Positions 38,726 through 41,700 of a DNA stretch of 64,000 nt are shown piece by piece. The position numbers were made by a program, and so were the translations under genes. This stretch comes from Trichinella spiralis (taxonomy: Eukaryota). Location: the NCBI RefSeq assembly GCF_000181795.1, contig NW_003526948.1:2654562-2718561 (forward strand), given 5' to 3'. The notes under the pieces were generated by a model. The model did not search any database, was not told the origin of the DNA, and was given only the letters and a program-made list of their open reading frames with translations. Numbering within the stretch: the stretch's first letter is position 1; every line of letters starts with the position of its first letter.

Positions 38726-41700
38726 CTAAAGTAGCTCGTATTGCCTCAAGTGGATTCTTTGAATTATATCACGGCAATCGTTGAACACTCTTCGAATATT
38801 TTCCGTATCCACTGCACATGTGAAATGAGGATAACAATGGTGCCGGCTGTCACCGGTAGCCGTCGAAATAAGCTGCAACAAAAAAATATCCGATGTCGCG
38901 GTAAATGAAATTATTCTACACCAAATATGGCAAAAAAGCACAGGAAGGAACTATAAACATGCATAATTTTACAACAGCATGACAATAATTAGAACATTGA
39001 CAACAACAACAACAACAACACTAATACTAATACTAGCAAGCAAAGTGACTAACGAGCAGAATTATCATACGGTTAAAAGAAGAACAAGAATACAATAAAA
39101 AAAGGAAATCAAAAATACAAACAAACAAACAAAAAGTGCCATTTCAAAATATCTGCAGCAATGTGCATAGAAATAGCAAGCGGAATTAATTTTATTTATA
39201 ATCCAAAAATTTTTCGAACAAAATGGCAAAACAGAAAAATGCTCAAATAGCCGACAACAACAACAACAACGAAACAAACAAATCATCGAGTACAGTCACC
39301 GTGCGTGCACTTTCAACTGATATATATATATATATTCAACGAATAATAGAAACAAAAATACAATTGAAAATAAACAACAACAACAAAACAATAATAAATA
39401 TTTTAAAATTTAAAAATGCAAGCTTCTGGTAAAAGATTCGCAAAAGAAAATATCAAGCTGTTGCCTGTGTACAAAAACTGCGTGTGTATAATAAACAAAT
39501 AAATAAATATATAGATAGATAGATAGATAGATGGTGTGGAATTGCCGTTATTATATATATAAGTAAAGCGCCAATTGTGATTTGATTTGCTAATTTCGCA
39601 ATGGAATTGGAAGAGCGCAAGCGTGATAAAAAAAAAACCAAACCAAACCAAAACAAAACAAAATTAACAAAATAAAGATCCGCTTCGGTGAGAAACTTTT
39701 GCATATGCAAATTGATCGCTGCGAACAACAACCGACAAGAAATGCAACGGATGAGATTAGAAATAGAGTCGTTGGAATGTTTTTTTTTTGGTCGATGCCA
39801 AGCAAAGGGTGGTCACTGAATCAGCTAGCCAGTTGGGTTTGGATTGAAATTTCGTGATCAAAAAACAAACAAACAAACAAAATCCAATCCATACCTCGTT
39901 GAAAAGAGAAAATAAATCCAAAGCGGTTTTGGTCTCATAATCGAGGCAGAGATTGAGTTGCAAATATTTTTTTGTTTTTTGTTTTGTTTTGTGTTCTGTG
40001 TTAAAAGATGAATGATGCTTTGTCGAGGAAAAGCTGACGACGTATAATATTTCGACAGTTGTCGAAAACGCGCCTCACGTTAGCGGTATCTAACGCGCAC
40101 GTAAAGTGCGGATAAATGTACCGATAAGTTCGCGATACTGATGAAGAATTGTGGCTAGAATGAAACGAAATGACAATTGGTCGCGCTCACATCGCAACTA
40201 ATTAATTCAAATTTTCAAAATAATTAATTATTAAAAAATATTTTGTTTTTCCTACAATTTCTGCTTTCTCTCTCAGTCTCAACCTCCCCTTCTCTCCTTC
40301 TCCCTCGCTCTCTCTCGGTCTCTCTCTGCTGTGTGTGTTGTTCACTTTTACCAAAAAAACGAAAACTAAAAAACAAACAAACAAACAAATAAACGAGAGG
40401 AAGCATAAAAAACAAAAACAAATAAAAATTAAAATAAAAAAATGAAACTTTTGCAGAACCTTCTCAAAGCGTGCAACGTCAACGTGCCACCGCGGCCAGT
40501 TTGCACCAGCGGCTTTGCCGACGCACTTTCCTCAGTCAACACGCACGGCAAAGGCACGCCCGCAGCCTGTTCACGCATGCTAGGTAGACACAGTTTCTAA
40601 AAAGACAGACACACACACAGTCCACAGAGCAGCAAAGGACAACGACAACAGACACATCCAACAACGGAGCATATATAACAGTATCGTATATTACACAACA
40701 CATTACAAAACAACAACATAATTACCAGAAATTCGCCCCGAATAAAATACTTTGCTCTCACTACGCAAGGATCTTCACCAGGTTCAAATTGAGCTAAAAA
40801 ATTTTAATAACACACTCCTTTACAAATCAGTAATCAATGAATAAAGAAATATTTTATGCAATACAATACAATACAATACAATACACACCATCTACGACAA
40901 ACTAACTAGACTAAACTAGACTAGACTAGTGTGCTTTTGCTTCCGATGAGCAATCGATTTCGTAAAAAAATATTTGCATAAAAATAAAAAGAAATAAAAG
41001 AACACCAACAAACATAGATAATTGGACAAAATTAAAATTAAAAAAAATTATTTTTTCTTGCAAAAAATATATACATTAAAAATCGACAACAACAACAACA
41101 ACAACAGCAACAGCAGCAACAACAGCATCTACTACTACTACTACTATTAATACTACAGTAAGAAAAAAATTAGTAATTAAGTTTTACATATGAACTGTAG
41201 AGTATTGTAGAGTTCGACTGTAACTTACCATCGGAAGGGATCAGATAGTTGGAATATTCAGGAAAGTAGTCTTCGAGCTTGTGCCTCCCCGATTTGATCT
41301 TCTCCGCAAGCAGATCTTGCTTATTGAGAAAAAGAATAACTGAGATTGTTTTGAGCCACCTGAAAAAGATGAACAAAAAAATTTAATTTTTTTAAAAATA
41401 AAAATAATTTGAAACTTCGCATCAGTCTATATATATATATATGTAAATAAGCGGACCTGTTGTTCCAAATTGATTTGAAAAGACTCAACGACTCTCGAAG
41501 CCTGTTGACAGTTTTATCTTCCAAAAGGACCATATTGTAAGACGACGATGCGCAGACGAATATGACGGCCGTGACGTCGTTGAAGCATTGTATCCATTTC
41601 CGACGTTCGTCTCTTTGACCACCGACATCGAACATACTGTATCAACGATATAAAAGTTAATAATAATAATAATAAATCAATTGATCAATCAATCAATCAA

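Follow-up and report, generated by a model that had tools for sequence, protein, structure and literature searches.

A conserved block in the Trichinella spiralis Gs-alpha gene as the likely first half of an ancient alternative last exon

Introduction

The alpha4-beta6 loop of G-alpha proteins faces receptor and effector, and truncated GNAS transcripts as well as regulation through detained introns or poison exons are known. According to the available part of PMC4659624, the alpha5 helix is the main link from the receptor to the nucleotide pocket; in Gs-alpha its tail is almost invariant across the animals examined here. The available part of PMC5896119 describes alternative final exon pairs in vertebrate GNAO (7.1-8.1 or 7.2-8.2) and in amphioxus preGNAS (12.1-13.1 or 12.2-13.2), the latter proposed to change the receptor range. 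The words 'Trichinella' and 'nematod' do not occur in the main text of that paper, and no description of an alternative Gs-alpha isoform in Trichinella was found in the literature covered, which leaves out most subscription papers. For C. elegans, the available part of PMC2474577 mentions unexplained ESTs close to the gsa-1 3' end.

The window analyzed here is a stretch of 64,000 nucleotides of Trichinella spiralis DNA (contig NW_003526948.1, positions 2,654,562 to 2,718,561). It contains a gene that resembles canonical nematode GSA-1 in its ordinary Gs-alpha exons 1–10 and canonical last exon, and that differs from the rhabditid and spirurid protein models examined, none of which has an insert or a second tail. 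Between exon 10 and the canonical last exon lie a second beta6/alpha5 exon and a GC-rich block. A first-pass annotation had read this block as a novel bridging exon that supplies the phase for the duplicate exon and inserts about 45 residues into the alpha4-beta6 loop.

Results

Gene model and coding phase

The host gene has a full G-alpha core, Gs-type sequence, and a QYELL tail, and is identified as Gs-alpha; the Trichinella form P0017 matches Gs-alpha chains with E about 1e-131. The features of the rebuilt gene model are as follows.

41229..42760, minus strand: Gs-alpha coding exons 1–9 (Trichinella gsa-1 orthologue), from the rebuilt gene model, with several joints in RNA.
40726..40793, minus strand: shared penultimate exon (exon 10), ending ..RGEFL with a phase-0 donor; joints 41229->40793, 40726->38872, and 40726->40596.
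40597..40725, minus strand: UG-rich intron of 129 nt, 5' of the alternative acceptor; spliced out in X1, X2, and X10, with unspliced contigs in X7 and X8.
40460..40596, minus strand: the block, 45 codons plus 2 nt covering the end of alpha4 and the loop insert, probably the alternative last exon's 5' half; acceptor used in RNA.
40429..40459, minus strand: read-through coding extension and stop when the donor is ignored (384-aa form); contigs extend past 40460.
40155..40459, minus strand: inferred phase-2 intron of 305 nt; retained in the contigs examined, spliced by gene models, absent in L001.
40001..40154, minus strand: the duplicate, which probably completes the alternative last exon as its 3' half; contains the second beta6, the TCA motif, and alpha5 with a different tail; Pfam G-alpha E 3.8e-06.
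40073..40081, minus strand: internal phase-0 donor (AAC/gtgagg) in the duplicate, rejoining the canonical exon; used by 14 of 25 gene models, none seen in RNA runs.
38873..38915, minus strand: AG upstream of the canonical exon, which gives the block another in-frame exit (437 aa); 3 of 25 models, none seen in RNA runs.
38726..38872, minus strand: canonical last exon, ending ..QYELL; joint 40726->38872 in seven of eight runs.

The ten coding exons from 42760 to 40726 sum to 987 nt, and the donor after ..RGEFL (TTTCTG/gtaatt) is therefore in phase 0. The block (40596–40460, minus strand) spans 137 nt (3n+2) between tttttag/AAACTG and AGAAG/gttctg, is open in phase 0, and ends in phase 2, the phase required by the acceptor of the duplicate at 40154. 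The phase-0 donor, phase-2 duplicate, and 137-nt bridging reading frame of the first-pass annotation are thus all reproduced, as is its description of the block as GC-rich (0.59, against 0.31–0.45 in the other coding exons and 0.20–0.38 in the introns). The canonical product has 377 aa and the product of block plus duplicate has 425 aa, in frame, whereas direct splicing of exon 10 to the duplicate is out of frame and gives 353 aa. With the block included, translation stops early either at 384 aa, with the ending ..SFIFLF, when its donor is ignored, or at 410 aa, when the block is joined out of frame to the canonical exon.

The phase fit of the block is on its own weak evidence: 17% of shuffled blocks are stop-free in its frame, and 121 AG..GT combinations in the same intron likewise reach the duplicate in frame. 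The block rises above chance because of the RNA joint at its acceptor and its homology in Trichuris suis, both described below. On a crude matrix built from ten introns the second intron scores low at both ends (donor 1.7, acceptor −4.5), a matrix too noisy to rank routes. The duplicate (40154–40001) is a tandem second copy of the beta6/alpha5 exon at 38872–38726 in the same gene and is one base longer at its 5' end; the block has no second copy within the window. Homology of the block to exon 10 was considered and rejected on phase (1->0 versus 0->2).

At the other end of the gene, 42765 is joined by two 5' UTR donors, 42850 and 42857, and another exon farther upstream is suggested by a loose end at 42905. 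A 105-codon frame (P0006, 48615–48929) is fused N-terminally to Gs-alpha in some models; the near-identical P0013 is labelled 'E3 ubiquitin ligase', and the fusion is likely annotation noise.

RNA evidence

Eight of 24 listed runs were compared: one raw RNA run (X18) and seven contig sets, which are treated as RNA because they show spliced joints, their status being otherwise a guess. The canonical joint 40726->38872 is present in seven of the eight runs. The joint 40726->40596 is present in three (X1, X2, and X10, from two studies), and the acceptor proposed by the first-pass annotation is indeed used. Splicing from the donor after ..EFL takes one of two acceptors, the proximal one at 40596 or the distal canonical one at 38872. 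The joint that would complete the alternative route, 40460->40154, had also been predicted and is found in none of the eight runs; contigs drop rare forms, and X18 is too shallow to test joints (87 reads, depth at most 1.5 over 40027–40654). Neither 40079->38872 nor 40460->38915 is present in the RNA runs examined.

Six of the seven contig sets have coverage over the block, and each of the six agrees with the genome beyond the block's donor, as far as 40451. Beyond 40451 the matching skips a repeat, and the repeats found around the block are microsatellite-like. One contig each in X1 and X2 is collinear and unspliced, with constant offsets, from 40596 to the canonical exon, and an X7 contig is unspliced across 40154; X4 lacks coverage of the block and X8–X10 lack coverage of the duplicate, gaps that are uninformative. 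Retention of 40459–40155 is the common state in the contigs seen, and splicing may still occur. The truncated form without beta6/alpha5 that had been foreseen if the donor is ignored thus corresponds to the 384-aa read-through form, which is what the RNA contigs show. The depth of block-bearing contigs relative to the canonical joint is 62.5/308.6, 41.8/337.9, and 20.6/235.2, or roughly a tenth to a fifth, and serves as a rough guide only.

Intron 9 (40794–41228) lies partly under unspliced contigs in X1, X2, X8, X9, and X10, and the last introns of the gene may splice slowly. In X4 a 245-letter contig extends upstream from the canonical exon (38873–38990) at a depth of 60.6, with the rest of the intron uncovered, possibly reflecting another acceptor inside the skipped repeat. 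The intron at 40597–40725 carries 27 TG dinucleotides in 129 nt (the nine introns upstream have 3–15%), and of the 13 (G/T)TGTTGTG sites in the window one lies here, a type of site that CELF-type proteins may bind. RNA structure in and around the block gives no special signal (z 0.34 and −0.08).

Conservation within Trichinella

In exons 1–10, 0 of 327 residues differ from the T. spiralis model P0009 and one differs from several sister species. A search with the block peptide returns five proteins, all from Trichinella. Among the fetched proteins, the 45 residues of the block are identical in all 25 Trichinella models that carry it after ..EFL, including those of the non-encapsulated T. pseudospiralis, T. 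papuae, and T. zimbabwensis, whose core differs at 7 of 327 residues. By this comparison the block is as conserved as the core and not significantly more so. The identical peptides, together with the T. suis homology in the same frame, bear out the coding frame given to the block earlier. Its designation as novel holds for the literature found, in which it is undescribed; it is already contained in these 25 automated models.

As automated predictions the models are no evidence for splicing, and they join the parts of the alternative tail in four conflicting ways. After the block, 14 pass through the duplicate to the canonical exon, two run to the stop of the duplicate, five enter the canonical exon out of frame, three use the upstream AG, and one takes another course. 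The internal donor at 40073–40081 arises from an I-to-V change common to T. suis P0041; other alternative tails keep I.

Across 24 alignable codons the duplicate and the canonical exon are identical at 17, 23, and 5 of the first, second, and third positions, and 18 of the 24 residues are kept, 15 of them through other codons. Overall, 20 of 49 positions are identical, and the first 13 codons share one residue. This codon pattern, together with the fit of the T. suis tail at 23 of 26 positions (below), shows protein-level selection on the duplicate as well as on the canonical copy. Constraint at the nucleotide rather than the peptide level was not found for the block, given that the T. suis peptide motif is kept in one frame only and that RNA structure gives no signal, with the relatives' block DNA being that of X8–X10 only. 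Pfam gives only a sub-threshold match to the block, and the ESM Atlas gives no usable match. For the canonical last exon (38726–38872), third codon positions were followed through off-frame models, in which 0 of 35 residues differ in T. pseudospiralis and 1 of 35 in T. zimbabwensis, a figure that hints at nucleotide-level constraint and has no baseline.

Trichuris suis, Plectus, and more distant proteins

In two Trichuris suis models an insert of 46 residues occupies the same position and has KLC and PCVL.E in common with the block. The local alignment score of this insert with the block is 46, reached in 0 of 5000 shuffles, and the other two frames score 18 and 14. One of the models (P0041) runs on into a duplicate beta6. 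The other, the off-frame model P0039, is compatible with the tail and stop of the Trichinella duplicate at 23 of 26 positions when a one-residue gap is allowed (19 without the gap), compared with 13 of 24 for the canonical tail; over its last 14 positions it is compatible with the duplicate tail at 12, reached in 0 of 20000 shuffles. Comparison of the two models suggests that T. suis shares the phase-2 AG/GT junction. Across the start of the duplicate T. suis is 5 residues shorter than Trichinella, and the read-through residues of the 384-aa form differ.

The Plectus sambesii model P0045 has a 73-residue insert followed by a similarly altered beta6/alpha5, and a protein 89% identical to it ends canonically. 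A search with the duplicate against 1.84 billion representatives gave 198 matches; among the 150 matches listed, at least six proteins have the same kind of tail and an upstream insert. In the fetched proteins, the HFT motif is preceded by R-Y-(not C)-Y in 0 of 313 cases with a canonical end and in 25 of 37 with another end, a comparison that the query biases towards the pattern. Similarity of the inserts beyond T. suis is not significant (1021 of 5000 local shuffles for the window against Plectus and 611 of 2000 for the profile that leaves out T. suis), and homology of the distant forms would thus rest on position, the K-L/M start, and the tail. One of them, P0234, has a weak G-alpha lead in the ESM Atlas. 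In the distant proteins P0234 and P0279 a W stands directly behind the residue that should be the last, which would fit a TGA stop that the gene caller translated; canonical matches such as P0233 show the same.

Insert and tail in one exon in a metagenome locus

Among 80 metagenome loci, 79 have the canonical tail only. The remaining one, L001, is a genomic nematode-type Gs-alpha gene with its best match in Plectus and with intron positions as in the window. After ..EFL it has an intron of 126 nt (129 nt in the window) and an acceptor followed by AAA as in the window, and then a single 90-codon exon that encodes the insert, beta6, and the alternative alpha5 through to a stop; the contig ends 130 nt past this stop, and the canonical exon lies outside it. 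The L001 counterpart of the UG-rich intron contains 16 TG and one TGCATG. In the distant proteins P0230, P0234, and P0279, too, a single frame runs through from an intron-like stretch that has Q at its end. In 30 non-nematode-type genomic loci with a GT intron at this place, no second module was found between the EFL exon and the canonical exon.

Since insert and tail form one exon in L001, the duplicated last exon probably begins at the phase-0 acceptor of the block, with the phase-2 intron a later addition. Rather than a new phase-rescuing exon, the block is thus likely to be the 5' half that remained when an intron later divided an ancient alternative last exon; the history implied by the term 'bridging exon' is likely reversed. 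The simplest reading of the genes compared is one ancestral alternative last exon with a phase-2 intron gained in the Trichinella–Trichuris line. The finishing splice apart, these comparisons argue that the alternative tail form is real and more widespread than the first-pass annotation could know.

Position of the insert in the protein structure

The block starts at human Gs-alpha residue 347 (P0017 residue 290 corresponds to 350), near the end of alpha4, the helix being assigned from models; the insert lies at the alpha4-beta6 junction, as had been proposed. In the AlphaFold2 model of Plectus P0045, insert residues 340–410 mostly have pLDDT below 50, and beta6 (414–419) and alpha5 (424–451) have pLDDT of about 65–71. 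This model aligns to Gs-alpha chains up to residue 394, with Z 28.8, rmsd 7.0, and 352 aligned residues for 7bph_A and Z 23.9, rmsd 3.0, and 235 aligned residues for 8gea_A. The Trichinella P0017 model lacks beta1, and its beta6/alpha5 has pLDDT under 50. Judging from the model of a relative, Plectus, the fold probably tolerates the insert. The earlier expectation of a large disordered insert agrees with the disorder predicted for the homologous Plectus insert; the 425-aa form that would carry it has its finishing joint in none of the eight runs.

Discussion

The reading that we favor, with a probability of roughly 0.7, is that the block is a transcribed, conserved exon of Trichinella Gs-alpha and that it likely opens an ancient alternative last exon, of which it is the first half; the isoform so formed would have a changed alpha5 tail and, after alpha4, an insert that is probably disordered. 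It has to be weighed against an account in which the acceptor at 40596 and read-through together form an unproductive-splicing switch. The resulting 384-aa frame without beta6/alpha5, followed by a 3' UTR of over 2 kb, would be degraded or detained and would tune the level of Gs-alpha, and the 425-aa form would be vestigial in Trichinella. Read-through is the only block-containing form in the contigs, the approximate contig depths relative to the canonical joint are in line with such a switch, and in five of the 25 models the block leads into the canonical exon out of frame. It leaves unexplained, however, the protein-level conservation of block and duplicate between Trichinella and Trichuris; moreover, the block has no special RNA structure and the read-through residues differ in T. 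suis. We consider this account unlikely as a full explanation, and unproductive splicing may be the default state alongside the favored isoform.

The block might instead be a cassette that adds the loop insert and rejoins the canonical tail, with the internal donor at 40079 giving 448 aa and the upstream AG at 38915 giving 437 aa. Both routes are in frame in the window and are taken by 14 and 3 of the 25 Trichinella models, respectively, and T. suis P0041 agrees; neither joint is in the RNA runs, however, T. suis has kept the tail past the internal donor up to its stop, and in relatives the protein ends in a tail of its own. Gene callers commonly merge alternative exons into one model, an artefact that could account for these predictions, and the cassette is in our judgment quite improbable. 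The history offered by the first-pass annotation, in which a stand-alone duplicate fell out of phase and was rescued by a newly exonised GC-rich block, draws on the single extra base at the 5' end of the duplicate and on the lack of another copy of the block in the window. Against it stand the near absence of shared residues in the first 13 codons of the two exons, the T. suis sequence that is 5 residues shorter there, the single exon of L001, and the uninterrupted frames of P0230, P0234, and P0279; it is already disfavored and highly improbable.

Under the favored reading of an ancient alternative last exon, the last exon would have been duplicated early in nematodes. The upstream copy would have kept its phase-0 acceptor, with the first residues K-L finishing alpha4 as R-I do in the canonical copy, and would have grown a long loop and changed its C-terminal hook before the phase-2 intron split it in the Trichinella–Trichuris line. 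This intron, probably with a weak donor and mostly retained, may restrict the 425-aa protein to some cells or stages. With the switch regions and the rest of the core unchanged, the alternative isoform would still activate adenylyl cyclase, and from the known role of alpha5 it might respond to a different receptor set or couple differently.

A broader proposal, which we put forward tentatively and regard as possible rather than probable, is that basal nematodes, and possibly other animals (P0234, P0279), have an undescribed second Gs-alpha isoform. It would combine a cyclase-activating core with a swapped receptor-reading tail and a loop of 45–90 residues, linking another receptor set to cAMP; in Trichinella and Trichuris it would be gated to certain cells or stages by the mostly retained later intron, and the C. 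elegans line appears to have lost it. If true, a second tail kept across distant nematode lines, accompanied by a large insert in the loop, would offer a natural test of what sets receptor selectivity. Parasite receptor work assumes one Gs-alpha, so that a second isoform would matter there, and an alternative tail would be missed from C. elegans alone.

The read-through form of Trichinella resembles truncated GNAS transcripts and poison exons in lacking beta6/alpha5 and having a long 3' UTR, and differs from them in that the retained intron parts two halves of a conserved coding exon. With vertebrate GNAO the locus shares a local duplication of C-terminal G-alpha exons, which in GNAO yields two isoforms differing in the receptor-coupling region and in Trichinella would do the same; GNAO, however, encodes Go and not Gs, has two exons duplicated, and is described with no mention of a long insert in the available part of PMC5896119. 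Amphioxus preGNAS, like the present gene, is a Gs-alpha gene, with alternative last exons encoding alpha5 such as are likely here; according to the same part of that paper (PMC5896119), its copies are 80–81% similar and one residue apart in length. In Trichinella, by contrast, the duplication involves the last exon only, the copies agree at 20 of 49 positions, and the second one has a different hook and 46 extra residues; the alternative Gs-alpha ends of Trichinella and amphioxus likely arose independently.
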